A DNA stretch of 64,000 bases from an uncultured Bacilli bacterium. GTDB taxonomy: Bacteria; Bacillota_I; Bacilli_A; RF39; UBA660. The stretch spans positions 625-64,624 of the forward strand of contig CANRBQ010000002.1 in the NCBI GenBank assembly GCA_947628905.1, written 5' to 3'. The notes under the pieces were generated by a model. The model did not search any database. It saw nothing but the letters and a program-made list of their open reading frames with translations, and was not told the DNA's origin. Made by a program: the position numbers and the translations under genes. Below, one piece after another: positions 3,239-38,684 of this stretch; the first letter of the stretch is position 1, and each line of letters starts with the position of its first letter.

Positions 3239-4240
3239 CTACTTTCCTTTCTTAACCCTTTTTTCTTTCTTTGGCTTTATTATAACATCTTTTTTATCTT
3301 CCATCTCATTTATTTTTTTAATTACTAAATTTTGTACGACCACAAAACCATTTGTTGCTATCCAGTATAGAGCTATCGCTGTAGATAAATATAAAGACGC
3401 TACCGAAATCATAATAATCATAAACTTAAACATAAACTGCATTTGGCTTTCCATCTCTGGATTACCTGTTTGATTAGAACCCATTGAATTTCTAAATGAC
3501 AAATATGTCGTTAAAATAATTAAAACTATTATGGCAATATATCCCCATTGATGATATTCAAAAAGTCCCATCATAGGTGTTCTACCCAAAGTTAAACCTA
3601 AAAACTTATCCTCGAATATCGCAGGAGTTCTATTTATTGCTTGCAAAAATGCAAAGAACAAAGGAAGCTGAATAAAAGCCAGTAAACAACTACCAAAAGG
3701 ACTAATATTATACTTCTTATATACCATCATCATTTCTTGAGACTTTTGAAGCATTGCTTCATTATCCGTCCTATTTGCGTATTTTCTTTCAATTCTTGCT
3801 AATTCTGGTTGAGCTTTCTTTAAATTATTAGATTGCTTCATTGTTTTTATAGAAATAGGCATTAATATTAATCTTATAGCAAGTCCAACAATAATTACTG
3901 ATAAACCAAAATTATTAATTAAATATCCCAATTTTAAGATAATAAATGCTAAAGGCTTAACAAATAATCCTTCCCATAAACCTGAAGCTTTATTACTACT
4001 CATTTTAAAATCTGCACATTTAGGAAGTTTATCATAAGCTATTTTAGTTTGATCTTTATATTCTGAATATAACTTATCTAAATCTTTATCTACTGGCTTA
4101 CATAAAATATCTTTTTGTAATACTTGTCCAGTCGCGTCATTCTGTACTGGTTTATTATCTTTCATAATATAGTTACTATTCCCACATCCTGTAAGCATTA
4201 CAATCATTAACACTATAATTCCAATTTTAAATTTCTTCAT
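3239..4240 (-). CDS. yidC: YidC/OxaA membrane protein insertase (lipoprotein type)
   Basis: Lipobox LTGC, multi-TM Oxa1 core, basic C-terminal tail. rnpA-yidC-jag synteny. Confidence 0.93.
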   Translation of the reverse strand: MKKFKIGIIVLMIVMLTGCGNSNYIMKDNKPVQNDATGQVLQKDILCKPVDKDLDKLYSEYKDQTKIAYDKLPKCADFKMSSNKASGLWEGLFVKPLAFIILKLGYLINNFGLSVIIVGLAIRLILMPISIKTMKQSNNLKKAQPELARIERKYANRTDNEAMLQKSQEMMMVYKKYNISPFGSCLLAFIQLPLFFAFLQAINRTPAIFEDKFLGLTLGRTPMMGLFEYHQWGYIAIIVLIILTTYLSFRNSMGSNQTGNPEMESQMQFMFKFMIIMISVASLYLSTAIALYWIATNGFVVVQNLVIKKINEMEDKKDVIIKPKKEKRVKKGK

Positions 4241-4574
4241 TTTGTATCCTTTCCATAGTATCTACTAAATTCTTTTCCATCTCTTGAAATGTAATATCCA
4301 AAATACCCTTCTTTACCATTATAATATAATTACGCTTTTTTTGAAACATTTTTTTATTCTTATCTAAAATATGTCTAAGTCTTCTTTTAATTTTATTTCT
4401 TTCTACAGCATTCCCACATTTCTTACTAACAGCTAAACCAAACATAGGATAATCTTTAAACCCATCCTTATAATATATATTATAATATTTCGATTTTAAA
4501 TACTTTCCATTTTCAATTATATTATTAAAATCTGTATTTCTCTTTACCATCTCATATTTTTTCAAGTCAATCAC
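4227..4574 (-). CDS. rnpA: ribonuclease P protein component
   Basis: 115-aa basic protein with the KKxGNAVxRNKIKRRLR motif, directly downstream of rpmH. Confidence 0.92.
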   Translation of the reverse strand: MIDLKKYEMVKRNTDFNNIIENGKYLKSKYYNIYYKDGFKDYPMFGLAVSKKCGNAVERNKIKRRLRHILDKNKKMFQKKRNYIIMVKKGILDITFQEMEKNLVDTMERIQNEEI

Positions 4575-4609
4575 TTACTTTCAAAAAAAATACCACTCTA
4601 AAAAAGTGG

Positions 4610-4732
4610 TTATCTAGCTAAAACTTTACGACCTTTATTACGTCTACTTTTTAATACATTTGACTCTTTACGAGCAAAAAATCCATGCTTTTTAGCTTTC
4701 TTACGATTATTTGGTTGATAAGTTCTTTTCAT
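4610..4732 (-). CDS. rpmH: 50S ribosomal protein L34 (not in ORF track)
   Basis: Hand translation gives [40 protein letters not shown] (40 aa). GGAGGTGGAG lies upstream of the ATG. The product is about 4 aa shorter than typical L34. Confidence 0.9.
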
Positions 4733-4740
4733 GAGCTCCA

Positions 4741-5332
4741 CCTCCTTAAAAAATTTCAAGTATTTTAATTATAATATTTTCTAAGCCAATAGTCAAGAAT
4801 TTTAGCATATTAATACCTAATAACACATATAAATATATTAAATTTTATTTATCTTAAATTAATTACTCTCCTAACTAAAAATTATAAATCATTTAAAGTT
4901 ATCAACATTTTAATGTGGATAATGTGGATAATTTTTTTCATTCACATCTTATTAACAATCAAATATTTCTAAAAACTTATCCAAGTATTTCTTATAAACA
5001 TAGTTTTTCAATTAAAAAGTGTATAAATATCTACTTATTAACATATAGATTAAAAGATCAAAACCTAAATAATAACTAATAAAAATAACCATTTTAAATC
5101 AATTACTAACACATTCCACAATATAATCAAAAATATCAACTGTTAATTGTTAATTAAAATCAAATTCATTTTGTTAGTAATGTAGATAACTCTCCAATCT
5201 TGCATAAACACTAAGAAAAACTATGTTTATAACTTGTGAATAAAATTTTTTTACATTTTTAGCTTTATTTTCGACCTTTTTTGCGATACAATTAATTTAC
5301 AAAACATTAGGACTATAAGCGGGGTGAGGTTT
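4741..5332. other. oriC (rpmH-dnaA intergenic region with DnaA boxes)
   Basis: Two abutting perfect boxes TGTGGATAA at 4914-4922 and 4923-4931. One-mismatch boxes at 4899-4907 (TTATCAACA), 5181-5189 (TGTAGATAA), 5235-5243 (TGTGAATAA) and 5332-5340 (TATGGATAA, over the dnaA start). The spacer is very AT-rich. Confidence 0.85.
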
Positions 5333-6679
5333 ATGGATAAAGAAGAATTACTAAAAACATTTCTAGACAACATATATAAAGAAATAAATCCAGCATCATT
5401 TCATGCCTGGTTTAATGATTTAAAAATAGTTTCCCTAACCTCTACCAAAATAACTTTTGAAGTTCCTATGGAAATTCATAAACGGATGCTTGGTGATAAT
5501 TACTATTCATTAATTGAAAAAACATTATATAATATTAACAATATTAATTATGATATCGAATTTGTATTAGAAGAAGAACTAGATACTCTTCCTCCTCCAA
5601 CTGTTAATAAAGAAGAAGTTATCCACAATAACTTTAATACTAACCTAAACCCTAATCTTAATTTTGAAAACTTCGTTGTAGGAGATACCAATCGTTTAGC
5701 CAAAGTAGCCGCGATGGCCGTTGCCGAAGCTCCAGGCCGTATCCATAATCCTTTATTTATCTATGGTAAAAGTGGCCTTGGTAAAACTCATTTAATGCAC
5801 GCGATAGGTAATTATATTACTGCCAGCTCAAACCGTAAAGTACTATATTGTACCTGTGATGAATTTATGACCGAATATACTAACATTGCTAATCCTGATA
5901 ATGCCAAAAACACTTTAGAATACGCAACAGAATTTAAAAATAAATATCGCAATATTGATGTACTAATAATTGATGATATCCAATATTTAGTAGGTGCCGA
6001 AAAAACCCAACAAGAATTTTTTAACACTTTTAATTATCTGCATCAATCCAATAAACAAATAATCATTAGTAGTGATCGTTCCCCAGATGATTTAAAAATA
6101 TTAGAAGAACGTCTTAGATCTCGTTTTATGTGGGGCTTACCTGTTGATATTTATCCTCCCGATTTTGACTTAAGATGTCGAATTATTCGTAAAAAAATTG
6201 AAAACACCAGTCTAGCAAATTTAATGAAAGAAGAAAGCATTGAATATATTGCTAATGCTTGTCAAAATGATGTTAGATTCCTGGAGGGTGCTGTAAATAG
6301 ATTGATGGCATATACCGCTATGATTGTACCTAAAGTAATAGATTTAGAATTTACTTGTGAAGCTTTAAAAGATTTTGTTAATAAAAACATCTATTCTAAC
6401 AATAATATTACTAAAATCCAAAAAGCCGTCGCCGATCATTATAATATAACAATAGATGATTTAAAAGGTAAAAAAAGAAGTAATAAAGTCGCTCACCCAA
6501 GACAACTTGCTATGTATCTCTGCCGGCTCGAAACAGACGAAACATATCCTAGAATTGGCTTAGAATTTGGAGGACGTGATCATTCAACTGTCATATTTGC
6601 CTGTGATAAAATTGAAAAAGAACTTGTATCTAATGCCGAGCTAGAAAGGACAATCAAAGAAATAAAATCCAAATTGTAG
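5333..6679 (+). CDS. dnaA: chromosomal replication initiator DnaA
   Basis: AAA+ Walker A GKSGLGKTHL, box VII, C-terminal DNA-binding HSTV motif. The track start is GTG 5324; ATG 5333 is an equally plausible start. Confidence 0.97.
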   Translation: MDKEELLKTFLDNIYKEINPASFHAWFNDLKIVSLTSTKITFEVPMEIHKRMLGDNYYSLIEKTLYNINNINYDIEFVLEEELDTLPPPTVNKEEVIHNNFNTNLNPNLNFENFVVGDTNRLAKVAAMAVAEAPGRIHNPLFIYGKSGLGKTHLMHAIGNYITASSNRKVLYCTCDEFMTEYTNIANPDNAKNTLEYATEFKNKYRNIDVLIIDDIQYLVGAEKTQQEFFNTFNYLHQSNKQIIISSDRSPDDLKILEERLRSRFMWGLPVDIYPPDFDLRCRIIRKKIENTSLANLMKEESIEYIANACQNDVRFLEGAVNRLMAYTAMIVPKVIDLEFTCEALKDFVNKNIYSNNNITKIQKAVADHYNITIDDLKGKKRSNKVAHPRQLAMYLCRLETDETYPRIGLEFGGRDHSTVIFACDKIEKELVSNAELERTIKEIKSKL

Positions 6680-6824
6680 ATAAAACTTTAATTTAATGTT
6701 AATAAATAACTACTTATCAACAAAAAAAATCAATTATTTTGCCTTAAATAAAGGTCAAAAACAACTTACAAACATTACTAACAGTATAATAAATATTAAT
6801 ATATTTTAGAAAGAAGGAATAAAT

Positions 6825-7943
6825 ATGAAATTTACAATTGAAAAAAATATTTTATTAGAAGGATTAAACAATGTTATAAGAGCTATATCTACTAAGAATG
6901 TTATCCCCGTTTTAAATGGAATTAAATTTGAATTAACCACAGAAGGTTTATATCTAACTGCCAGTGATTCAGAATTAACAATTAAAGTTTTAATAGAATC
7001 TAAAGATATTAAACAAGTTACTAACTTAGGTGGTATTATTATTCAAAGTAAATATATCCTAGATATAGTAAGAAAGATGCCAAGTGATATTATTAACTTT
7101 GAAGTTATAGATGGTTTAAAAATTAAAATTTATACTGATAATAACCAATATAATTTAAATTGTTTAGATATTAATGATTATCCCGATGTTAAGTTAGAAC
7201 TTAGTAAAGAACCTATAATTATTAAAGGTGATATATTTAAAACTATTATTAATCAAACAGTATTTGCTATCTCTAATCAAGAATTAAGACCAATTCTAAC
7301 TGGTGTTAACTTTAAATTTAGTAAAGATGTTTTAGAAACAACAGCCACTGATTCATATCGTTTAGCTAAGAAAAACATTAAACTTGCTTCTCCCGTTGAA
7401 AAAGATATTGAAATAGTTATTCCTGGTAAAAATATTATGGAGTTGGAGCGAATTATCACTGATGAAGAAGATATCGAAATGCATATCTTTAATAATAAAG
7501 CATTATTTATATATAAAAATATTAACTTTCAAACTAATCTTTTAAGTGGTAATTATCCTAATACTAGTAATTTAATTCCTAGTGAATTTGCTTATATTAT
7601 TAAAGTTAATAAAAAAGACTTTAATGACGCGATAGATCGCGCGGCTCTTCTAACTCAAGGAAAAGATAAGAATATTGTCAAAATGTCTTTAGAAAATACT
7701 AAAATGATTATCAATTCTTATGCTTCCGAAATTGGTAAAGTAGAAGAACAATTAACAGTAGAAACTAATAATAAAGAGAAACTTGAAATTTCCTTCTCTT
7801 CTAAATATATGCTTGAAGCTATTAAAACAATGCAAGAAGATGAAATATTACTGTTATTAAATAGTGATGTTAAACCATTAATTATTAAATCATTAACAGA
7901 TGAATCACTAATTCAACTAATTTTACCTATAAAAACATATTAA
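6825..7943 (+). CDS. dnaN: DNA polymerase III beta sliding clamp
   Basis: 372-aa three-domain clamp homologue with dnaA-dnaN synteny. Confidence 0.96.
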   Translation: MKFTIEKNILLEGLNNVIRAISTKNVIPVLNGIKFELTTEGLYLTASDSELTIKVLIESKDIKQVTNLGGIIIQSKYILDIVRKMPSDIINFEVIDGLKIKIYTDNNQYNLNCLDINDYPDVKLELSKEPIIIKGDIFKTIINQTVFAISNQELRPILTGVNFKFSKDVLETTATDSYRLAKKNIKLASPVEKDIEIVIPGKNIMELERIITDEEDIEMHIFNNKALFIYKNINFQTNLLSGNYPNTSNLIPSEFAYIIKVNKKDFNDAIDRAALLTQGKDKNIVKMSLENTKMIINSYASEIGKVEEQLTVETNNKEKLEISFSSKYMLEAIKTMQEDEILLLLNSDVKPLIIKSLTDESLIQLILPIKTY

Positions 7944-8039
7944 TGCGACCAAAAACAAATATATAAGTCACAATTCGACAAATTTTGCCTTCTAAATATG
8001 ATATAACATAATTATTTATATGAAAGGAGGCAATTTTTC

Positions 8040-8492
8040 ATGCCTTATATTATCACAGAAAAAACCAATATCTTAATTCCTAAAAAAAGTATGACAGAAG
8101 TTATAGAAACAGAAAAAACATTTATTATTGAAGAAGAAACACTAGATGTCATTATGCATAATTGTTTTTTAAATGGTTCTAGTTTAGAAGGTAGACAACA
8201 TGGCAGTGCTTATCTTTTAGGTAGTTCTTATAAACCACCCATTATATTAAGTGAATTAGATAATTTAATATTTGTTCCAACGCATTCAATGCGTAATTTA
8301 AAATGTTGCTGGATTAACTTAGCTAATATCTTAAAATATTATCCTAGTAGTCCCGAAAAAGTAATAATTGAATTTAAAGATTTTCAAAAAATAGAATTAA
8401 ATATCTCTTATTATATTTTAGATAAACAAATATTGCGTGCAACTCGTTTAGAATCAACTTTAAGAGGTCGAAATCTAAAAAAACAACTTTAA
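8040..8492 (+). CDS. ComK-family protein
   Basis: GSSLEGRQHGSAYLLGSSYKPPIILSELDNLIFVPTHSMRNLKCCWIN aligns from memory with the B. subtilis ComK core GSSYAGRKAG...HKPPIMV...IFLFPTLS...CGWIS. GGAGG RBS upstream. Confidence 0.7.
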   Translation: MPYIITEKTNILIPKKSMTEVIETEKTFIIEEETLDVIMHNCFLNGSSLEGRQHGSAYLLGSSYKPPIILSELDNLIFVPTHSMRNLKCCWINLANILKYYPSSPEKVIIEFKDFQKIELNISYYILDKQILRATRLESTLRGRNLKKQL

Positions 8493-8580
8493 ATGGGTGC
8501 TATTTTATGATATAATATTCTTAGGTATAGGAGTACAACAACATACCAATTTTTAAAAATCAACAAAGTAGGGGCAAAAA

Positions 8581-9669
8581 ATGGAAATTAGAAGTTTAAA
8601 GTTAATCAATTTTCGTAACTATGAATCTCTTGAACTTAAATTTAGTTCCGAGACCAATATTATCTATGGTCAAAATGGCATGGGGAAAACAAATTTAGTT
8701 GAAGCGATTTATATTTTAGGTTTAACCAAAACTTTTCGTTTAGGTAATGAAAGTGTTATTATAAAAAAAGGCAAGAATATTACCAAAATTGAAGGTTTAA
8801 TCATGGATAATATCTTAAATAGTTATAAGATAGTGGTAAGTGATACAGGTAAACATATAAAAATTGATAATAACAAAATTTCTAAAATAAGCGATTATAT
8901 AACAAAAGTTAATGTAATATTGTTTAATCCTGATGATTTAAAAATAATAAAAGACACCCCTATGACTAGAAGAAGACTTTTAAATATTGAAATATCTGGC
9001 ATTAATAAAGAATATTTATTATATTTAAATAACTATAATAAACTTTTAAAACAAAGAAATTCTTATTTAAAAGCTCTTAGTAAAAAAAATAATTTCAATA
9101 GTGATTTTTTAAATATTTTAACCGCCGAACTTATTAATACAGGTTTAAAAATAGTAGCTATTAGGCAAGATTTTATCACAAATATTAATAAATATATTGC
9201 TGATATATATTTTAAAATCACTAACAAAGGTCATCTATCGTTAAATTATAAAAGTGAATATAAGAATAAAACGAAAGACCAATTATTAAATATGTACGAG
9301 AAAAATATTTCCCGGGAAATAATTATGGGCAAAACTCTCTTTGGTCCTCAACATGATGATATAGAATTTATAGTAGATAAAGAAATTGTTAAAGAATTTT
9401 CTTCTGTTGGTGAACAAAAAAACAGTGTTATTGCCTTTAAGCTTGCTGAAATAAAAAATATTGAAGATAGCTTACATAAAAAACCTATATTAATATTAGA
9501 TGATTTATTTAGTGAATTAGATCAAGAAAAAATAAATAATATCTTAACATTACTTGATGATAAGTTACAAACATTTATAACAACTACGGAAATAGATTTT
9601 GTTGACCCTAAGTTACTCGCCAAATCAAAAATATTTCATGTTATAAATGGTAAAGTAAAGGAGGAATAA
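8581..9669 (+). CDS. recF: DNA replication/repair protein RecF
   Basis: Walker A GQNGMGKTN and SMC-like signature/Walker B LILDDLFSELD. Confidence 0.95.
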   Translation: MEIRSLKLINFRNYESLELKFSSETNIIYGQNGMGKTNLVEAIYILGLTKTFRLGNESVIIKKGKNITKIEGLIMDNILNSYKIVVSDTGKHIKIDNNKISKISDYITKVNVILFNPDDLKIIKDTPMTRRRLLNIEISGINKEYLLYLNNYNKLLKQRNSYLKALSKKNNFNSDFLNILTAELINTGLKIVAIRQDFITNINKYIADIYFKITNKGHLSLNYKSEYKNKTKDQLLNMYEKNISREIIMGKTLFGPQHDDIEFIVDKEIVKEFSSVGEQKNSVIAFKLAEIKNIEDSLHKKPILILDDLFSELDQEKINNILTLLDDKLQTFITTTEIDFVDPKLLAKSKIFHVINGKVKEE

Positions 9670-11586
<1,917 letters not shown>

Positions 11587-11597
11587 GAGGTGTTTAA

Positions 11598-14042
11598 ATG
11601 GATAGATTAGAAAAAAATAATATTGTAAAAGAAGTAAAAGATTCATTTCTTGAATATTCAATGAGTGTTATCGTGGCCCGTGCCCTACCCGATTTAAGAG
11701 ATGGTCTAAAACCTGTTCATCGTCGAATTTTATATTCTATGTATGAATCTGGCTACACCCCAGATAAGCCTCATAAAAAAAGTGCTCGTATCGTGGGAGA
11801 TGTTATGGGTAAATATCACCCTCATGGAGATTCAAGTATTTATGAAGCTATGGTTCGTATGGCTCAAGATTTTAGCTATCGCTATATGTTGGTAGATGGT
11901 CATGGAAACTTTGGTAATATTGAAGGTTATGGCGCTGCAGCCATGCGTTATACTGAATCAAGATTATCTAAAATATCCTTGGAATTATTGAGAGATATTA
12001 GAAAAGATACCGTGAATTTTACTCCAAACTTTGATGAATCAGAACAAGAACCTGAAATATTGCCATCAAGATTTCCTAATATCTTAGTAAATGGAACTAC
12101 TGGAATCGCTGTTGGTATGGCAACTAATATTCCCCCTCATAATCTTGGCGAAGTAATTGATGGTTGTATAGCCTATATTGATAATCCCGAAATAGATACT
12201 ACTGGTTTAATGCAATATATTAAAGGTCCAGACTTTCCAACCGGTGCTATTATCTTAGGTAACTCGGGTATCAAAAAAGCTTATGAAACAGGCCGTGGCA
12301 GTATCACAATTCGTTCTCGTGCCGAAATAGAAGAAAAAAATGGTCGAGAATATATAGTTATTACCGAAGTTCCTTATGGAGTTAATACTTTAGAATTAAA
12401 AAATAAAGTTGCCGAATTAGTTCATAATAAAGTATTAGATGGTATTACAGACTATCATGTAGATTTAAAAGAAGGCGTTAAAATAACTATTACATTAAGA
12501 AAAGATGCTAATGCTCAAGTTATTTTAAATAAACTTTATAAACATACTGCTTTTCAAACAACCTATGGTATTATCTTCTTGATGCTCGATAATGGAGTTC
12601 CTAAAACTTTAGGCCTAAAAGATATTATTTCTAAATACATTGATTATCAAAAAGAAGTAATAATTCGTCGTACTAGATTTGATTTAGATAAAGCTGAAAA
12701 ACGTGTTCATATCTTAGAGGGCTTAAAAATAGCTCTAGATCACATTGATGAAGTAATTAAACTAATTCGTGGATCAAAGTCTGATGAAGAAGCAAAACAA
12801 GGCTTAATGGAGAGATTTGGCCTATCAGACGTTCAAGCAGAAGCTATTCTTGAAATGCGTTTAAGAAGATTAACAGGCTTAGAAAGAGATAAAATTGAAG
12901 AAGAACTAAATGAATTATTAAAATTAATTGATGAATTAAGAAGTATTCTTGCATCAGAAGAAAAAGTCTTAAATATTATAAAAGAAGAATTATTAGAAAT
13001 AAAAGATAAATATAATGATAAACGTCGTACTGATATAGATATGACTGCAATAGAATATATCGAAGATGAATCACTTATCCCAGAAGAAGATATCCTTATT
13101 GCATTAACTAATAAAGGTTATATAAAACGTACCACTAGTGATACTTTTAAAGCTCAAAAACGTGGTGGAATGGGTATAAAAGGTATGACAACTAACGAAG
13201 AAGACTTTGTTGAACATATGATTAATTTAAGTAGCCACGATTACTTGTTGTTCTTTACTAATAAAGGTAAAGTTTATCGTCTAAAAGGTTATGAAATTCC
13301 AGAGTTTAATCGTCAGTCTAAAGGCTTACCAATTATTAATTTACTTCAAATAGATAAAGATGAAAGTATTAATACAATGTTAAGTGTAACCCCACAAGAA
13401 GATACGAAATTCCTGCTATTTGTTACCAAAAAAGGTTTAGTTAAGAAAACAGCAATAAGTGAATTTGAGAACATACGTACGTCAGGAAAGATATGTATAA
13501 ATCTTAAAGCATCAGACGAATTACTTGCTGTTAAAAAGACTAATGGTGATAATTTTGTCCTATTAGGTAGTGAAACTGGACGTATGGTTAAATTCCATGA
13601 AAAACATATCCGAGCAATGGGTAGAACCGCCAGTGGAGTTAAAGGTATAAATCTTGATGGTAGTAAATGTGTCTGTGCTGAAGTAGTAACAGAAGAAGAT
13701 AAAATATTGTTGGTAACTGAAAAAGGATATGGAAAAAAGACGTTAGTAAAAGAGTTTAGAGAAACAAGTCGTGGCAGCAAAGGTGTAAAAGCTCTAAATA
13801 TTACCGAAAAAAATGGTAATATATCAGCTGTCAAAGTTGTTGATGAAAGCAAAGAATTAATTATTATGACTAATACAGGAACAACCATGAGAATGTCATT
13901 AGAGCAAATAAATACTTTAAGTCGCGTAACTCAAGGTGTAAGATTAATTAATCTTAAAGATGATCAATACGTAACAACAATTAGTTTAGTAGATAAACAA
14001 CCACCAGAAGAAGAACAAATTGAAGAAAGTAATGCTGAATAA
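11598..14042 (+). CDS. gyrA: DNA gyrase subunit A
   Basis: Active-site [25 protein letters not shown]-terminal beta-pinwheel repeats. Confidence 0.98.
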
Positions 14043-14549: not shown

Positions 14550-14555
14550 AATAAC

Positions 14556-14632
14556 GTGCAACAAATATATTGTAACCTGGTCAGAACTGGAAAGTGGCAG
14601 CCATATCAATCTCTATTTGTGTGCACACTTTT
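14556..14632 (+). ncRNA. ffs: small (4.5S-type) signal recognition particle RNA
   Basis: CCUGGUCAGAACUGGAAAGUGGCAGCCA matches the universal helix-8 motif (GGUCAG...GGAA tetraloop...GCAGCCA). It is closed by GUGCAACAAAUA pairing with UAUUUGUGUGCAC, then a T-run. It overlaps the 5' end of tracked ORF 14594. Confidence 0.8.
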
Positions 14633-14647
14633 TTTATGGAGGAATTT

Positions 14648-32245: not shown

Positions 32246-33592
32246 ATGTTTGATACTATTTGTGCTATTTCAACCTCTAGAGGAGTTGGAGCTATATCTA
32301 TCATTCGTGTAAGTGGAAATGAAGCCATAAGTAAAGTAGCTCCCCTTTTTGATGGCAAAAATCTTTTAGAAGTACCAAGTAACACCATCAACTATGGACA
32401 TATAGTTAAAGATAATGAAATAATTGATGAAGTATTAGTAAGTGTAATGCGTGCCCCTAAAACTTATACAAAAGAAGATATAATTGAAATAAATACTCAT
32501 GGAGGTATTGCCCCTACTAAAAAAGTCTTAGAAACTCTTTTAGAAACAGGTATTCGTCTAGCCGAGCCAGGAGAATTTACCAAAAGGGCTTTTTTAAATG
32601 GTCGTCTAGATCTAGCCGAAGCTGAAGCTGTTGAAAATTTAATATCTTCAGGAACAGACTTAGAAAGAAAACTTGCTTTAAATCAAATGAGTGGTAAAGT
32701 ATCTCGTAAAATAAAAAAAGTTAGAGATATTATTGTTGAATTAATGGCTAATATTGAAGTAAACATAGATTTTCCCGAATATGAAGATGCTTTAATTATT
32801 ACTTTAGATAATTTACCACCCAAATTAAATGAAATAAAAAAAGAATTAGAAACTCTTTTAGAAGAAGCTAAAATAGGTAAATTAATAGAACAAGGAATTA
32901 AAGTAGCAATTGTTGGTCGTCCTAATGTTGGCAAAAGTAGTTTATTAAATGCTCTATTAGATGAAAATAAAGCTATAGTAACAGATATCGCAGGAACTAC
33001 TAGAGATATAGTTGAAGGTGAAATAGAACTAAAAGGTATTCGTCTAAAATTTATTGATACCGCGGGTATTCGTAAAACTAATGATATAGTTGAAAAAATT
33101 GGTGTTGATAAATCTTTAGAAATAATTAAAGAAGCTGATTTAGTAATTCATGTTTTAGATAATAATGAAGAATTAACTGAAGAAGATCAAGAAATAATGA
33201 CCAAAATAAAAAATAAAACTCATATTACTTTTATAAATAAAAATGATTTACCAACCAAAATAAAATTAAATTCTAAAGATTATATTATTGGTAATACTAA
33301 AAAAGATAATGGATTAGAAACTTTAAAAAATAAAATAATTGAATTATTTGAATTAGAAGATATAAAAACTAATAATTTAGAAGTTATATCAAGCACTCGC
33401 ATAATTAATTTAATAAAAGAAGCTTTATCATCAATTAATAATGCTTTATCTAATGTAGATGCTAAAATTCCTGTTGATATGATTGCTATTGATATTAAAA
33501 AAGCCTGGGATTTACTAGGAGAAATTACTGGTGAAACTTATCAAGATGAACTATTAGATACTTTATTTAGTAAATTCTGTTTAGGTAAATAA
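32246..33592 (+). CDS. mnmE: tRNA modification GTPase MnmE
   Basis: G1 GRPNVGKSS, G3 DTAG, C-terminal FCLGK. Confidence 0.97.
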   Translation: MFDTICAISTSRGVGAISIIRVSGNEAISKVAPLFDGKNLLEVPSNTINYGHIVKDNEIIDEVLVSVMRAPKTYTKEDIIEINTHGGIAPTKKVLETLLETGIRLAEPGEFTKRAFLNGRLDLAEAEAVENLISSGTDLERKLALNQMSGKVSRKIKKVRDIIVELMANIEVNIDFPEYEDALIITLDNLPPKLNEIKKELETLLEEAKIGKLIEQGIKVAIVGRPNVGKSSLLNALLDENKAIVTDIAGTTRDIVEGEIELKGIRLKFIDTAGIRKTNDIVEKIGVDKSLEIIKEADLVIHVLDNNEELTEEDQEIMTKIKNKTHITFINKNDLPTKIKLNSKDYIIGNTKKDNGLETLKNKIIELFELEDIKTNNLEVISSTRIINLIKEALSSINNALSNVDAKIPVDMIAIDIKKAWDLLGEITGETYQDELLDTLFSKFCLGK

Positions 33593-33624: not shown

Positions 33625-35481
33625 ATGTATGATTTAATTGTTGTAGGAGGTGGCCATGCTGGTTGTGAAGCGGCCCATATTGGGGCTGTTCTTGGCCTTA
33701 AAACAGCCTTAGTAACGGCTAATATTAAAAATATAGCTGATATGCCATGTAATCCTGCTATTGGAGGAACTGCTAAAGGTATAATTGTAAGAGAAATAGA
33801 TGCTTTAGGAGGACTAATGGGTATTATCGCTGATAAATCTCATTTTCAAATTAAAATGCTTAACAATGGTAAAGGTCCTGCTGTAAGAAGTCTTCGGGCT
33901 CAAGCCGATAAAATAACCTATCCTAAAAATATGTTAAAAGCTTTAGATGAAACTGAAAACTTAACTATTATTGAAGGCATGGTAGAAGATTTAATAATTG
34001 AAAATAATATGGTAAAAGGAATAGTTTTAGCTAATAAACAAGAAATTAGTGCTAAATCTGTTATTTTAACAACGGGTACTTATTTAAAAGGTAATATTTT
34101 AATTGGTAAAGAAAATAATCCTGGAGGACCTCATGGTGAAGCAAGAAGTAACCATTTGAGTGATAATCTAAGAAAATATGGTTTAACTATTCAAAGATTA
34201 AAAACTGGAACTCCTCCTCGTATTAAAAAAGATTCTATTGATTTTACTAAAATGCATCCTGAAAATGGTGATGATAAATATTATACTTTTTCTTTTGATA
34301 CTGAACCTTTATATAAAATAAATGACCAACAAAAATGTTATTTAATTTATACTAATGAAAATACCCATAATATTATTAAAGCTAATTTAGATAAATCCGC
34401 TATGTATGGAGGATATGTAACCGGGATTGGTCCTCGTTATTGTCCTTCTATTGAAGATAAAATTGTTAGATTTGCCGATAAACCTCGTCATCAATTATTT
34501 TTAGAACCAGAAAGCCTATATTATGATGAATGGTATCTACAAGGCTTTTCTACTTCTATGCCAAGAGATATCCAAGAAAAAATGGTTCATAGTTTACCAG
34601 GCTTAGAAAATGCCCAAATAACTAAATATGCATACGCGATTGAATACGATGCAATAGATCCTTTACAAATGAAACCATCACTTGAAAATAAAATAATCGA
34701 AAATCTTTTTACGGCTGGTCAAATAAATGGTACCAGTGGTTATGAAGAAGCAGCAGCCCAAGGATTAATCGCGGGTATAAATGCTCATCATAAATTAAAA
34801 GGTATAGAACCATTAATATTAAAACGCAATGAAGCTTATATTGGGGTATTAATTGATGATTTAGTAACTAAAGGAACCAAAGAACCCTATCGTATGTTAA
34901 CATCTCGTGCCGAATTTCGTTTATTACTTCGCCATGATAATGCTGACTTAAGACTTCGAGAAATAGGCTATAAAAATGGTACAATAGATAAAGAAAGATA
35001 TGAGAAATTAACAGAAAAAATAGCTACTATTAATAATATTAAAAATATTCTTCGTAATACTAATTTAAGTTTAAATGAAGAAACAAAAGAAAAATTTACT
35101 CAAGCAAATCTTGAAATACCAACTTCCAGTGTTTCTCTATACTTACTTTTAAAAAGACCAGAAATAACAATTGATTTTATTAAAAAACTTCTTCCCTTAG
35201 ATTATCCTAATGATATCTTAGAAGAAGTAGAAATTGAAATTAAATATGAAGGATATATTGCTAAAGCTTATAAAGAAGTTGAAAAAATGCTAAAACTTGA
35301 AGAAAAAATTATTCCCGAGGATATTGATTATCACGACATTTTAAATCTGGCCAGTGAAGCCCGTCAAAAACTTGAAAAAATAAGACCTAAATCAATTGGC
35401 CAAGCTGCTCGTATCAGTGGTGTTAATCCCAGTGATTTATCTATTTTATCAGTTTATTTAAAAAAGAAATATAATAAATAA
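33625..35481 (+). CDS. mnmG: tRNA uridine 5-carboxymethylaminomethyl modification enzyme MnmG
   Basis: FAD motif VVGGGHAGCEAA, full-length GidA homology. Confidence 0.98.
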   Translation: MYDLIVVGGGHAGCEAAHIGAVLGLKTALVTANIKNIADMPCNPAIGGTAKGIIVREIDALGGLMGIIADKSHFQIKMLNNGKGPAVRSLRAQADKITYPKNMLKALDETENLTIIEGMVEDLIIENNMVKGIVLANKQEISAKSVILTTGTYLKGNILIGKENNPGGPHGEARSNHLSDNLRKYGLTIQRLKTGTPPRIKKDSIDFTKMHPENGDDKYYTFSFDTEPLYKINDQQKCYLIYTNENTHNIIKANLDKSAMYGGYVTGIGPRYCPSIEDKIVRFADKPRHQLFLEPESLYYDEWYLQGFSTSMPRDIQEKMVHSLPGLENAQITKYAYAIEYDAIDPLQMKPSLENKIIENLFTAGQINGTSGYEEAAAQGLIAGINAHHKLKGIEPLILKRNEAYIGVLIDDLVTKGTKEPYRMLTSRAEFRLLLRHDNADLRLREIGYKNGTIDKERYEKLTEKIATINNIKNILRNTNLSLNEETKEKFTQANLEIPTSSVSLYLLLKRPEITIDFIKKLLPLDYPNDILEEVEIEIKYEGYIAKAYKEVEKMLKLEEKIIPEDIDYHDILNLASEARQKLEKIRPKSIGQAARISGVNPSDLSILSVYLKKKYNK

Positions 35482-35504
35482 ATCCAGCATCTAAACTGGA
35501 TTTT
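35482..35504 (+). terminator. mnmG terminator
   Basis: ATCCAG / CTGGAT stem followed by TTTT. The hairpin is nearly the same as at 36900-36922. Confidence 0.6.
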
Positions 35505-35592
35505 AAATTTGACCATTAGTAAGTTTTATTGTATAATAATTTTAGGGAAACTTAATAGTTGAGTGCTTGCCTCTTGAAAGGAGGCAGATGAT

Positions 35593-35676
35593 ATGTATAA
35601 GAAAGATTTTTTAATCTTATCTCTTATTATGATTATCTTTTTACTCATAGCCTTACTTTTTACTTTAGTAATATAG
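35593..35676 (+). CDS. candidate 27-aa hydrophobic peptide (type I toxin-like), not in ORF track
   Basis: Promoter TTGACC(35509-14), 17 nt, TGTATAAT(35530-37). The SD AAAGGAGG is partly buried in the hairpin TGCCTC(35568-73)/GAGGCA(35581-86). Hand translation: MYKKDFLILSLIMIIFLLIALLFTLVI. Confidence 0.5.
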   Translation: MYKKDFLILSLIMIIFLLIALLFTLVI

Positions 35677-35688
35677 TAATCTATATAA

Positions 35689-35804
35689 GAAAAAAGCACT
35701 CAATTTACATTCAGTAGATTAAGTGCTAACCAAAAAATACGGTAAGTGCTCAACATTGAAGAATTAAGCCTTCCCTTTTTTATTTTATGAAGTTTCCCTC
35801 ATCT
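35689..35804 (-). ncRNA. candidate convergent antisense sRNA (module C)
   Basis: Minus-strand promoter TTGCAA(35838-33), 16 nt, TATAAT(35816-11) with TGG. Terminator stem (complement of 35695-35703 / 35719-35727) followed by a U-run (A-run 35690-35695). Confidence 0.5.
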
Positions 35805-35888
35805 CTATACATTATACCATATTTTTAACTTTTTGCAAATATCTTTCCCTAAAACTATTAATGTGATACAATTAAACCGAGGTGTATT

Positions 35889-36593
35889 ATGTCAATTAAT
35901 GAATTTATTAAAGAATTATCTAAATTAAATATTAATTTAACAGAAGAACAATTAAATAATTTAGAAATATATAAAAATCTTTTACAAGAATATAATCAAA
36001 AATTTAATCTAACAGCTTTAACTAAAGATGAAGATATATATTTAAAACATTTTTATGATTCTTTAACTTTAAATAAAAACCTAGATTTAACCAAAGAATT
36101 AAATATTTTAGATATTGGAACAGGCGCCGGCTTTCCTGGTTTAGTTTTAAAAATAATATTTCCTAATCTAAATATAACTTTATTAGATTCTAATCATAAA
36201 AAAATAGAATTTTTAAATACTGTAATATCTAAATTAAACTTAAAAAAAATAACTTGTCTTAATTCTCGTGCCGAAAATTTAGACAGTAAATATATTGAAT
36301 ATTTTGATGTTATAACATCTCGTGCTGTCGCACATCTTCGTATATTAATAGAACTATCTCTTCCCTATCTTAAAATAAATGGTTTATTTATCGCTATGAA
36401 AGGTAATTTAAATAATGAACTAAAAGAATCAGAATCTACTTTAAGTAAATTAAATGGAAACATTATAGATATAAAAGAATTTAAATTGCCCATAGAACTT
36501 AGTAATCGTAGTTTAATAACTATTAAAAAAATTAATAAAACCCCTAAAGAATACCCCAGAACTTATGATAAAATAATAAAAAAATCTTTATAA
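35889..36593 (+). CDS. rsmG: 16S rRNA m7G527 methyltransferase RsmG
   Basis: DIGTGAGFPG SAM motif, with mnmG-rsmG synteny. Confidence 0.95.
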   Translation: MSINEFIKELSKLNINLTEEQLNNLEIYKNLLQEYNQKFNLTALTKDEDIYLKHFYDSLTLNKNLDLTKELNILDIGTGAGFPGLVLKIIFPNLNITLLDSNHKKIEFLNTVISKLNLKKITCLNSRAENLDSKYIEYFDVITSRAVAHLRILIELSLPYLKINGLFIAMKGNLNNELKESESTLSKLNGNIIDIKEFKLPIELSNRSLITIKKINKTPKEYPRTYDKIIKKSL

Positions 36594-36661: not shown

Positions 36662-36880
36662 ATGTTAGAAAATATTTTATTAATAATATCAATTTTAATT
36701 ATCGCGGTTGTATTACTTCAAAGTAATAAAGCCAGTGATGGTAGTCAAATAATTTCAGGAGGAAATGAAGTATTATTCCAAAATATGAAAGAAAGAGGCT
36801 TTGAATTATTTATTAGTCGTTTAACTCTTATATTAGGTTTATTATTCTTTATTATTTCTCTAGTTATTTTCTTAAAATAA
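36662..36880 (+). CDS. secG: preprotein translocase subunit SecG
   Basis: 72-aa two-TM protein with a central GG...RG motif typical of SecG. Confidence 0.75.
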   Translation: MLENILLIISILIIAVVLLQSNKASDGSQIISGGNEVLFQNMKERGFELFISRLTLILGLLFFIISLVIFLK

Positions 36881-36899
36881 TTAAAATATTAATAATTAG

Positions 36900-36922
36900 A
36901 TCCAGCATAACTGGATTTTTTT
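36900..36922 (+). terminator. secG terminator
   Basis: ATCCAG / CTGGAT stem followed by TTTTTT. Confidence 0.7.
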
Positions 36923-37087
36923 AATTGAAATAAATATTTTAAAAAATACTTGAAAAATTATAAATAATATTGTACACTAGAAATATATCATAGAAAAATA
37001 TGACATATATTGATATGTTTTGTCGATTGTAATGAAAAAGTAGAGCAAATAAGTTATAATGGACAAAGAATAAGAGGAGATATAAGC

Positions 37088-38560
37088 ATGGAATTTAAAT
37101 TTAAAAAGCCTTTGGTAGTGTTAAGTCTATCTATTTTAATAATACCTATAAGTATTGTTTCTATTTATAGTAAAGAAAAAGACTATAAAATAAAAGAAGA
37201 TAATATAGCTCAAAAAGAATATAATAGTTTATCTATGTTTATAGTTGATGGAGAAGACAAAACTTCAATAGATACTGTGCCTAGTGCAAATGAATATGAT
37301 CTAGACTCTCAAAGCTATTGCCTAAGAGGAAAAGACAAAATAACAGATGTTCTAACAAAGATAGATAATAACTTTGTATTTAAAGAATTACATACTGATG
37401 ATAAGTGTTATTTGTATTTTAGTAAAATAAAAACTCCATCAGAGGTAATACTTGCAAATAGTCCAACTCAAGGAGATGCTGGAGCAATAACAGGCCCAAG
37501 TTGTAATGGAAATAAAAATGAATCATGTCGGAGTAGTGGATCACCGGATAATAAGAAAAATAATATGGCGCAAAATGGAGTATTTTCTGCCGAAGATGAC
37601 TTTGGAACAAGTTATTACTTCAGAGGATATGTTCAGAATAACTGGGTAAAATTTGGTCAAGAAGGTAATGATGACTTATGGTGGAGAATCATCAGAGTCA
37701 ATGGAAATGGCACAATAAGATTAATATATGCTGGAAAGGGAAGTTCACCATCAACAACAGGCCCAAGTACTCAAATAGCTACAACTTATAGTGACAAAAT
37801 AAATCAAAAATATAATGCAGATTATGGTGATAATACATATGTAGGATTTATGTATGGACCAACAGGTCAAAGTAGCTATGGTGTCACACATGTAAATACT
37901 AATAAAAGTAAAATAATGACAGAATTAGAAACATGGTATGCAAAAACTACTTTAGGTAACTTAAGTTCTAAAATAGATGTAGATACAGGATTCTGTAATG
38001 ATAGAGGGTTAGCAGAAGCAGATCATGGAAATTATCTAGGACCTAATGGAGGATATAATAAAGTGCGAACAGCCTATGCCCCAGTAGATAGGGTATGGCA
38101 AAAAGAAAGTACAAGTGCTGATACAACACAAAGACCAACATTAAAGTGTGGTAAAGATGCCACGGCTCAAAAGAGAGATTTATTCACAGGACCAAGTGCT
38201 ACACCAGGAGGAACAGATGGCATTGACGGAAAAGTAGAAGGAAATAATGCACTTAGTATGCCAGTAGGTTTAATAACAAGTGATGAAGTAATATATGCAG
38301 GAGGATTTTTTGGACAGAACAATGATGGATATTGGTTATATACTAAGCAAGCTTATTGGACCATGTCTCCGTATCACTTTGGCGGCAGCTATGCTAACGT
38401 GTTCTCTGTGGGTTCGGGTGGCAACCTCCCCTACACAGGCGTGAACAGCACGTGGGGTGTGCGCCCAGTAATAAATCTGAAAGCTGATACAAATATCGAA
38501 TTTCAAGATCCAAGTGGTGCAGATAAAGGAACAACATCTAATCCATACATAGTCAAATGA
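37088..38560 (+). CDS. secreted/surface protein, paralog 2 (carries the GC-rich, A-poor patch)
   Basis: Start moved to ATG 37088 (MEFKFKK), after AAGAGGAG. Signal-anchor LVVLSLSILIIPISIV. Shares SYCLRG, KCYLYF, WWRIIRVNGNGTIRLIY, YVGFMY, GFCNDR, PTLKC, GNNALSMPVGLITSDEVIYAGGF, YWTMSP and GVRPVINLK with paralog 1. Confidence 0.85.
   Translation: MEFKFKKPLVVLSLSILIIPISIVSIYSKEKDYKIKEDNIAQKEYNSLSMFIVDGEDKTSIDTVPSANEYDLDSQSYCLRGKDKITDVLTKIDNNFVFKELHTDDKCYLYFSKIKTPSEVILANSPTQGDAGAITGPSCNGNKNESCRSSGSPDNKKNNMAQNGVFSAEDDFGTSYYFRGYVQNNWVKFGQEGNDDLWWRIIRVNGNGTIRLIYAGKGSSPSTTGPSTQIATTYSDKINQKYNADYGDNTYVGFMYGPTGQSSYGVTHVNTNKSKIMTELETWYAKTTLGNLSSKIDVDTGFCNDRGLAEADHGNYLGPNGGYNKVRTAYAPVDRVWQKESTSADTTQRPTLKCGKDATAQKRDLFTGPSATPGGTDGIDGKVEGNNALSMPVGLITSDEVIYAGGFFGQNNDGYWLYTKQAYWTMSPYHFGGSYANVFSVGSGGNLPYTGVNSTWGVRPVINLKADTNIEFQDPSGADKGTTSNPYIVK
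38360..38470 (+). other. compositionally aberrant segment (DGR variable-region-like)
   Basis: Hand count over 38375-38464: 55/90 G+C, 14/90 A, and 15 of 30 codons are NNC. Confidence 0.6.
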
Positions 38561-38684
38561 CGAAGTATGGATTAGAAAACACTTTTTGGGGGAGTGTAGG
38601 TTGGTGGTTCAAAATGACTCTTCATTTTGCTTACAAAACTTATAAAAATTTACTAATAGTAAACATAAACAATTGCCCTATATG

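Follow-up and report, generated by a model that had tools for sequence, protein, structure and literature searches.

The gap between mnmG and rsmG in a 64,000-nucleotide stretch of DNA from an uncultured Bacilli bacterium (contig CANRBQ010000002.1; "the window" denotes this whole stretch) holds a compact element that is probably a chromosomal type I toxin-antitoxin (TA)-like module inserted between the two genes. Sequence comparison documents two convergent genes, each with its own promoter and terminator, coding constraint on a short open reading frame (ORF), a hairpin over the Shine-Dalgarno (SD) sequence, a long-range helix joining the two ends of the predicted mRNA, and strand-specific structure on the antisense RNA (Table 1). 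About 20 independent copies on other contigs preserve the entire unit and show covariation. Judged by these comparisons, the module is a previously unannotated and uncharacterised type I TA-like family that appears in no curated family. A first-pass annotation of this DNA, made from its letters alone, had proposed a type I TA candidate at this site; the motifs it named are all present, nearly all of them at the coordinates given. The proposal is now strongly supported by selection on the ORF, covariation in the SD hairpin, conserved promoters, selection on the minus-strand RNA and the occurrence of arrays at variable sites. The in silico features of the type I class are present: on a short mRNA, a constrained, hydrophobic ORF within the 20-60-residue range; an antisense RNA encoded in cis, complementary to that mRNA and equipped with a separate promoter and terminator; and an mRNA structure that restricts translation.

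The window has a G+C content of 26.5% and carries mnmE (32246-33592), mnmG (33625-35481) and rsmG (35889-36593), all on the plus strand. The first-pass annotation had remarked that mnmG and rsmG are usually adjacent but lie about 400 bp apart here, and had suggested comparing the spacer across related genomes for presence or absence of an insert. Both the remark and the comparison hold up. From the mnmG stop at 35481 to the rsmG ATG at 35889 the gap is 407 bp, against 1-36 bp in relatives recovered via rsmG (n = 23), with 88 bp in one of them; in two relatives, genes other than mnmG lie upstream of rsmG. The nearest public genomes to the window's uncultured Bacilli lineage are rabbit-gut metagenome-assembled genomes. 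Among the relatives recovered, the ~400-bp spacer is common only to the closest one, L003, and the insert is absent from the others. By this comparison the ~395-400-bp module is shown to be an insertion between mnmG and rsmG. The two genomes share 94.5% protein identity in mnmG and 87% in rsmG. Their modules are 99% identical (3 differences in ~340 bp), compared with 78-93% in flanking coding DNA; at the nucleotide level, ~800 bp centred on the module (35205-36003) align at 93-100%, and identity farther out is 78-93%. The insert also brings rsmG its own extended -10 promoter, and rsmG is therefore uncoupled from mnmG transcription. In L003 this promoter reads TGgTAAAAT and is kept despite two substitutions. 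The locus thereby offers an example of how such modules may invade tightly packed housekeeping operons, with mnmG split from rsmG and a new terminator and a new promoter supplied.

Copies of the module were sought by scanning a metagenome collection with a degenerate pattern for the SD and the first six codons, followed by tblastn. Near-identical peptides with the consensus MYKKDFLILSLLIIIFLLIALLFTIV[KR] are encoded on 17 of the 52 matched contigs, and the tblastn follow-up extended the family to more than 30 copies on 17 metagenome contigs, about 20 of which were aligned. The 27-residue hydrophobic peptide gene called earlier, with its ATG at 35593 and its stop codon ending at 35676, is borne out by these copies. 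Over codons 7-27, which the search pattern leaves unconstrained, the proportion of synonymous differences (pS) among 14 distinct ORFs is 0.54, compared with 0.13 for nonsynonymous differences (pN). Variable columns are distributed 10/6/17 over the three codon positions, with third-position changes dominating, and replacements are mostly I/L/V/M exchanges. ORF length is 27 residues in 19 of 21 aligned copies, and the start, the stop and the SD-to-ATG spacing are conserved. The substitution pattern shows an ORF under purifying selection, that is, a real gene. The window's own peptide, MYKKDFLILSLIMIIFLLIALLFTLVI, has a mean Kyte-Doolittle hydropathy of 2.28. In an ORF scan of the window's large intergenic gaps, ORF 35593-35676 was the sole short, strongly hydrophobic ORF with a strong SD.

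The family occurs in tandem arrays of 2-4 modules spaced 320-440 bp apart. Module sites include signal peptidase/valS, fmt/priA, positions next to recO, NUDIX hydrolase genes and a transposase, and one abutting tRNA-Gly; module orientation is independent of the neighbouring genes. Within the window, blastn, an ORF scan and tblastn detected no further copy. Plasmid and phage collections yielded none by blastn and tblastn, and two pattern scans of IMG/VR matched only an unrelated 299-residue protein. Five family members gave no Pfam or NCBIfam match even at E <= 10, and a PADLOC search was likewise negative. None of ten peptide variants is present in a collection of 15 billion proteins, and a literature search did not find the peptide string. 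Against Rfam the module had no match with E < 0.6; a permissive E-value gave terminator-like noise only (Ref55 at 20.6 bits against a gathering score of 43, BsrG, RF01412, at 10.4 against 55). Six other module loci likewise lacked a gathering-level Rfam match.

A rival idea is that the insert is a mobile repeat similar to a miniature inverted-repeat transposable element (MITE), or that it serves as an insulating terminator-promoter cassette between mnmG and rsmG; in either case the ORF and the antisense features would be incidental. A 17-nt inverted repeat (94% complementary) does bracket the module at 35534-35550 and 35844-35860, the insert carries an mnmG terminator and an rsmG promoter, and one copy adjoins a transposase. 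However, the inverted repeat does not exceed shuffled expectation, is absent from other copies and is degraded in L003. The conserved unit instead runs from promoter to promoter, in unrelated contexts and in either orientation, and its ORF is under purifying selection. We give this explanation almost no credence.

The predicted peptide mRNA starts from a near-consensus promoter at 35509-35537 that had been recognised in the first-pass annotation. It matches the consensus at 11 of 12 positions, and 19 of 21 copies carry a TTGnnn-17-TAnnnT pattern at this site. A TG directly abuts TATAAT, hence there is no canonical TGn extended -10. The transcript folds far more stably than dinucleotide shuffles (z = -6.95), and its minimum free energy (MFE) structure of -66.6 kcal/mol closes 5' to 3'. 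Three segments of the 5' end form this closure in the window copy: AGGGAA (35544-35549) pairs with UUCCCU (35771-35776), CUUAAU (35551-35556) with AUUAAG (35763-35768), and GUUGAGUGCUUGCC (35558-35571) with GGUAAGUGCUCAAC (35741-35754). A U6 tract at 35776-35781 follows directly after the 3' arm. Closure from 5' to 3' is a property of the MFE structure of every copy, with 12-29 pairs. Long-range helices 1 and 2 together comprise 21 consensus pairs. Their paired fractions are 92.7% and 98.5%, and in each helix 4 pairs show compensatory changes. RNAalifold applied to 20 copies predicts 44 pairs, of which 16 show compensatory changes.

For a quantitative evaluation, the two long-range helices, the local SD hairpin and a post-stop hairpin were scored together against slid alignments and 500 shuffles. 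In this structure 94.9% of cells are paired, compared with 38-53% in slid controls; 14 pairs carry compensatory changes, compared with 2-6; and the covariation score is 0.273, compared with at most 0.109. None of the 500 shuffles reaches the observed paired fraction, the counts of compensatory pairs or cells, or the covariation score. The SD hairpin at 35568-35586, in which the SD had been described as half buried, is 91.6% paired across copies (46-70% in slid controls). Its outermost informative pair, alignment columns 34/59, is A-U in 11 copies and G-C in 8. Column 34, which corresponds to G35569, also covaries with column 222 of long-range helix 2. This nucleotide therefore has two mutually exclusive, selected partners, C35585 and U35743.

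The 5'-3' fold-back proposed in the first-pass annotation stands in part. The sequence AGGGAAACTT (35544-35553) is indeed the reverse complement of 35790-35799, but the conserved partner of the 5' end is 35741-35776, before the U-run. The downstream site was chosen by RNAfold only if the RNA was made to run past the U-run. It lies beyond the likely mRNA 3' end, where it is the complement of the GNRA hairpin HP1 of the antisense RNA. As a potential terminator, a local hairpin abutting the U-run is also possible in every copy; its energy lies between -3.9 and -12.6 kcal/mol.

The convergent gene was likewise indicated at first pass, by a minus-strand TTGCAA-16-TATAAT promoter at 35838-35811. It is present, and promoter-like hexamers with 17-18-bp spacing occupy the antisense promoter position in 19 of 21 copies. 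An RNA of about 115 nt ending at a stem and U-run had been predicted from it; the terminator is confirmed, but its stem comprises 10 bp with one U.G pair (35727-35695) rather than 9 bp. The RNA has a fold z of -4.35 against dinucleotide shuffles, and each copy folds into three hairpins. Across copies, the HP1 loop keeps the GNRA form (GAAA or GUAA) on covarying stems. HP2 and HP3 together are 97.4% paired, compared with 28-49% in slid controls, with 6 compensatory pairs. The direction of this constraint can be read from the wobble pairs, since a minus-strand G.U pair turns into an A.C mismatch in the plus-strand sequence. Reading these antisense hairpins on the minus strand gives 34 G.U pairs; reading them on the plus strand gives 2, together with 42 non-pairs. 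This asymmetry is therefore direct evidence for selection on a minus-strand RNA. A possible 18-residue ORF on this RNA, MLSTYRIFWLALNLLNVN, was discarded, its ATG being absent from the group-2 copies (alignment A4).

Strand-specific selection of the minus-strand hairpins, together with a conserved GNRA loop in HP1 that lies outside the mRNA overlap, would also fit a trans-acting regulatory small RNA (sRNA) as the functional product, with the plus transcript and its ORF secondary. Such an arrangement is very unlikely in view of the clear coding constraint on the ORF. In addition, the plus promoter, SD hairpin and long-range helix are conserved, their covariation uses plus-strand G.U pairs, and the sRNA is always linked to the ORF.

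The antisense RNA is perfectly complementary to the mRNA over ~97 nt (35689-35782), in agreement with the 3' overlap anticipated at first pass. The overlap falls wholly within the 3' untranslated region (UTR), begins 13 nt from the stop codon and takes in both 3' arms of the lock. Two AGCACU repeats had further been noted on the antisense RNA and proposed to pair with the mRNA 5' UTR. Both repeats exist, the second (TAAGTGCT) lying at 35743-35750, one base from the position given for it. For the proposed pairing, a 9-bp complementarity exists but scores no better than shuffled antisense RNAs, with duplex energies across copies at z of -0.4 to -3.0 and +0.5 in one copy. The 5' segment involved is also used in conserved helix 2, with which the proposed pairing competes.

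Table 1. Predicted elements of the mnmG-rsmG insert, in window coordinates.
Feature	Position	Strand	Sequence or structure	Evidence or remark
Hairpin at mnmG end	35480-35503	+	AAATCCAG-N8-CTGGATTT, then T-rich	Likely mnmG terminator; left edge of the ~395-bp insert
Peptide mRNA promoter	35509-35537	+	TTGACC (35509-35514), 17-bp spacer, TATAAT (35532-35537)	11/12 consensus positions
Predicted peptide (candidate toxin) mRNA	35544-35782	+	~240 nt	Transcription start ~35544 to U-run 35776-35781
5' arm of long-distance interaction	35544-35571	+	AGGGAA-A-CUUAAU-A-GUUGAGUGCUUGCC	Helices 1 and 2
SD-sequestering hairpin	35568-35586	+	UGCCUC (35568-35573) / GAGGCA (35581-35586); SD GGAGG 35580-35584	Covariation
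Hydrophobic ORF, 27 residues	35593-35676	+	MYKKDFLILSLIMIIFLLIALLFTLVI	Candidate membrane toxin; coding constraint
3' arm of long-distance interaction, or alternatively local terminator hairpin	35741-35781	+	U-run 35776-35781, predicted mRNA 3' end	
Antisense (candidate antitoxin) RNA	35689-35804	-	~115 nt, three hairpins	Covariation, G.U pairs
Antisense HP3, terminator	35727-35695	-	10-bp stem with one U.G, then U-run	
Antisense HP2	~35775-35741	-		
Antisense HP1	35802-35787	-	GAAA loop	
Antisense RNA promoter	35811-35838	-	TTGCAA (35838-35833), 16-bp spacer, TATAAT (35816-35811)	TGn extended -10
rsmG promoter, extended -10	35864-35872	+	TGaTACAAT	Right edge of the insert

From this architecture we infer that both RNAs are transcribed, that RNase III cleaves their duplex, that the SD hairpin extends on antisense binding and that the peptide is toxic. 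A strong sigma-A promoter would produce the ~240-nt mRNA (35544 to ~35782) for a 27-residue, single-helix membrane peptide. This mRNA would be kept nearly untranslatable by the local SD hairpin and by pairing of its 5' end (35544-35571) with its 3' end (35741-35776), a closure that probably also stabilises it. The convergent promoter would produce the ~115-nt, three-hairpin RNA (35804 to ~35689) directed against the last ~97 nt of the mRNA. Pairing may be initiated by a loop-loop contact, after which a long duplex would form, RNase III would cleave it and the mRNA would decay. Displacement of the 5' arm would at the same time free GCC (35569-35571), allowing the SD hairpin to extend over the whole GGAGGC and block translation. 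Should the antisense RNA be lost, residual translation would send the peptide to the membrane and cause growth arrest.

The closest architecture among known systems appears to be that of bsrG/SR4 and txpA/RatA, with a long-distance lock of the hok/AapA1 kind added. In its layout the module agrees with the type I systems of Gram-positive bacteria that overlap at the 3' end, as set out in PMC8594479. As in bsrG/SR4, txpA/RatA, bsrE/SR5 and yonT/SR6 of Bacillus subtilis, a convergent antisense RNA covers ~100 nt of the mRNA 3' part, and the two RNAs have separate promoters and terminators. The 3' overlap of the module (35689-35782) falls within the ~75-125 nt taken as the criterion for BsrG/SR4-type systems. 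SR4 promotes decay of bsrG mRNA with RNase III and extends the SD helix from 4 to 8 bp (PMC3834814). The same logic may be seen in the module, where GCC at 35569-35571 pairs either with the 3' arm or with the 3' end of the SD. In contrast to the bsrG/SR4 group, the module peptide is shorter (27 residues) and unrelated, the overlap excludes the ORF, and the mRNA has in addition a closing 5'-3' helix of ~26 bp, the antisense RNA being directed against its 3' arm. Sequence or covariance-model similarity to that group is lacking (RF01412, as above). The bsrG/SR4-group loci of B. subtilis are largely prophage-borne, whereas the module occupies intergenic sites among housekeeping genes, and searches of the phage and IMG/VR collections recovered no copy.

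The first-pass annotation had placed the module in the design of Enterococcus par (fst/RNA II), an assignment that is not upheld: the module has separate terminators, a ~97-nt 3'-UTR overlap and no Fst profile or Rfam match. Similarities to par (pAD1, Enterococcus faecalis) and SprA1/SprA1as do exist, namely a small hydrophobic peptide, a 5' SD-sequestering stem-loop and convergent RNAs; in both systems, as in the module, the antisense RNA does not overlap the ORF (PMC8594479). The par RNAs, however, share a bidirectional terminator, which is their sole region of overlap, and interact via 5' repeats. In the module, the plus strand lacks a U-run at the minus-strand terminator (35727-35695), and the mRNA extends another ~85 nt before reaching a hairpin and U-run of its own.

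A 5'-3' long-distance interaction that closes the full-length mRNA, supported by covariation, is shared with hok/Sok (plasmid R1) and aapA1/IsoA1 (Helicobacter pylori). Interactions of this kind lock toxin mRNAs in a stable, translationally inert fold (PMC6733600, PMC9841398, PMC8594479). Those systems belong to Gram-negative hosts, and their antisense RNAs target the 5' region or the ORF, only after 3' processing, whereas the antisense RNA of the module lies in the 3' UTR and targets the 3' arm of the lock. The module also differs in having no leader ORF, no sequence similarity to these systems and no Hok or AapA Pfam match. It thus joins a hok/AapA1-style 5'-3' lock with a bsrG-style 3'-overlapping antisense RNA, two devices usually described separately. 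An antisense RNA aimed at the lock itself would constitute a compact and testable RNA switch.

Several observations weigh against reading the module as a TA system. Searches of Pfam, NCBIfam and PADLOC revealed no known toxin family that resembles the peptide. In all states modelled, the SD is predicted to stay sequestered, with no obvious route to activation. When the overlap region is blocked, the mean probability that the SD GGAGG is unpaired falls from 0.16 to 0.08; the direction of this predicted antisense effect fits, but its size is small, since most of the SD is buried beforehand. With a terminator hairpin of -4.3 kcal/mol on the plus strand, near the weak end of the family range, the window copy leaves room for read-through into rsmG. 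A recent recombination tract could contribute, alongside constraint, to the 99% identity with L003. Lastly, conservation of the SD and the first six codons follows from the construction of the search pattern, which left the rest of the module unconstrained.

A rival reading keeps the RNA architecture but makes the 27-residue product a harmless membrane protein, perhaps one that modulates a membrane complex, with its level set by antisense RNA in cis. The absence of a toxin-family match, low predicted translation in all states and the presence of several copies by NUDIX genes, a possible hint of local function, all favour that view. Yet the genomic contexts are variable and contain no conserved partner gene, the modules form tandem arrays of up to four copies, and knock-outs of the start codon, the SD or the frame occur within arrays. 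Moreover, a double lock composed of an SD hairpin and a long-range closure is typical of toxin genes rather than of accessory subunits. We regard a benign product as improbable. For the type I TA-like reading, the double translational lock, the tandem arrays at variable sites and the array knock-outs in which the RNA elements are kept provide hints of toxicity of the candidate peptide.

In a more specific and tentative extension, which we consider possible but not the likelier outcome, the module would define a type I TA family that has so far escaped recognition and occurs solely in uncultured, AT-rich Bacilli of the gut, with an antitoxin that acts by strand competition. The antisense RNA, which resembles the mRNA 5' arm, would displace that arm from the 3' arm. 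Flipping of the two-partner switch nucleotide would then complete SD sequestration, and a substrate for RNase III would also be created. A single 3' segment would accordingly serve as terminator hairpin, 3' half of the lock and antitoxin target. In one divergent copy (L038, described below), the antitoxin appears fused behind a tRNA-Gly gene instead of having its own promoter. In any case, the comparisons add a well-defined type I TA-like family from gut bacteria with few or no cultured members, based on about 20 aligned copies with covariation at the level of base pairs. Such loci are invisible to annotation, as illustrated by the ten looked-up peptides, all absent from the 15-billion-protein collection.

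Individual copies display further variation. In L038, a tRNA-Gly(GCC) gene replaces the antisense promoter and the first hairpin (L038 34-108 (+) and 80-193 (+)). The tRNA gene is co-directional with the remaining antisense RNA and lies directly upstream of it, a layout that suggests a tRNA-linked, processed antitoxin transcript. In three arrays, the first module has ACG in place of the ATG start (L051 216-299, L064 6225-6308 and L065 8317-8400), and the SD, ORF, hairpins and antisense region of these modules are intact. Other array members include MYKMDF copies without an SD and with 3' decay, and L071 carries frameshifts. Several group 1 copies, which resemble that of the window, stand directly beside NUDIX hydrolase genes (L039 7430-8344, L047 410-1015, L067 882-1289 and L050 2720-3214), the neighbour in L050 having been assigned by eye only. 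This adjacency could reflect an orthologous insertion site or a functional link. In L065, a T-box leader (138 bits; 12996-13228 (-)) adjoins the four-copy array and lies upstream of an operon ending in valS.

Elsewhere in the window, a segment of ~1.8 kb downstream of secG (36875-38675) coincides with a gap at the same place in the L003 alignment and looks like a second lineage-specific insertion. Its 516-residue ORF (37010-38560) has a hydrophobic segment at the N terminus and matched nothing in Pfam. The only gathering-level Rfam match in the 64-kb window is a bacterial small signal recognition particle RNA (RF00169, 50.5 bits) at 14550-14635. From the order of its ORFs, we take 4227-14042 to be the neighbourhood of the replication origin, with gene names that are presumptive, assigned from N-terminal sequences. 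The minus-strand ORF at 4227-4574 is presumably rnpA and is followed by a 749-bp gap, beyond which plus-strand ORFs are taken to be dnaA (5324-6679), dnaN, recF, gyrB and gyrA. The 749-bp gap probably holds oriC and rpmH.

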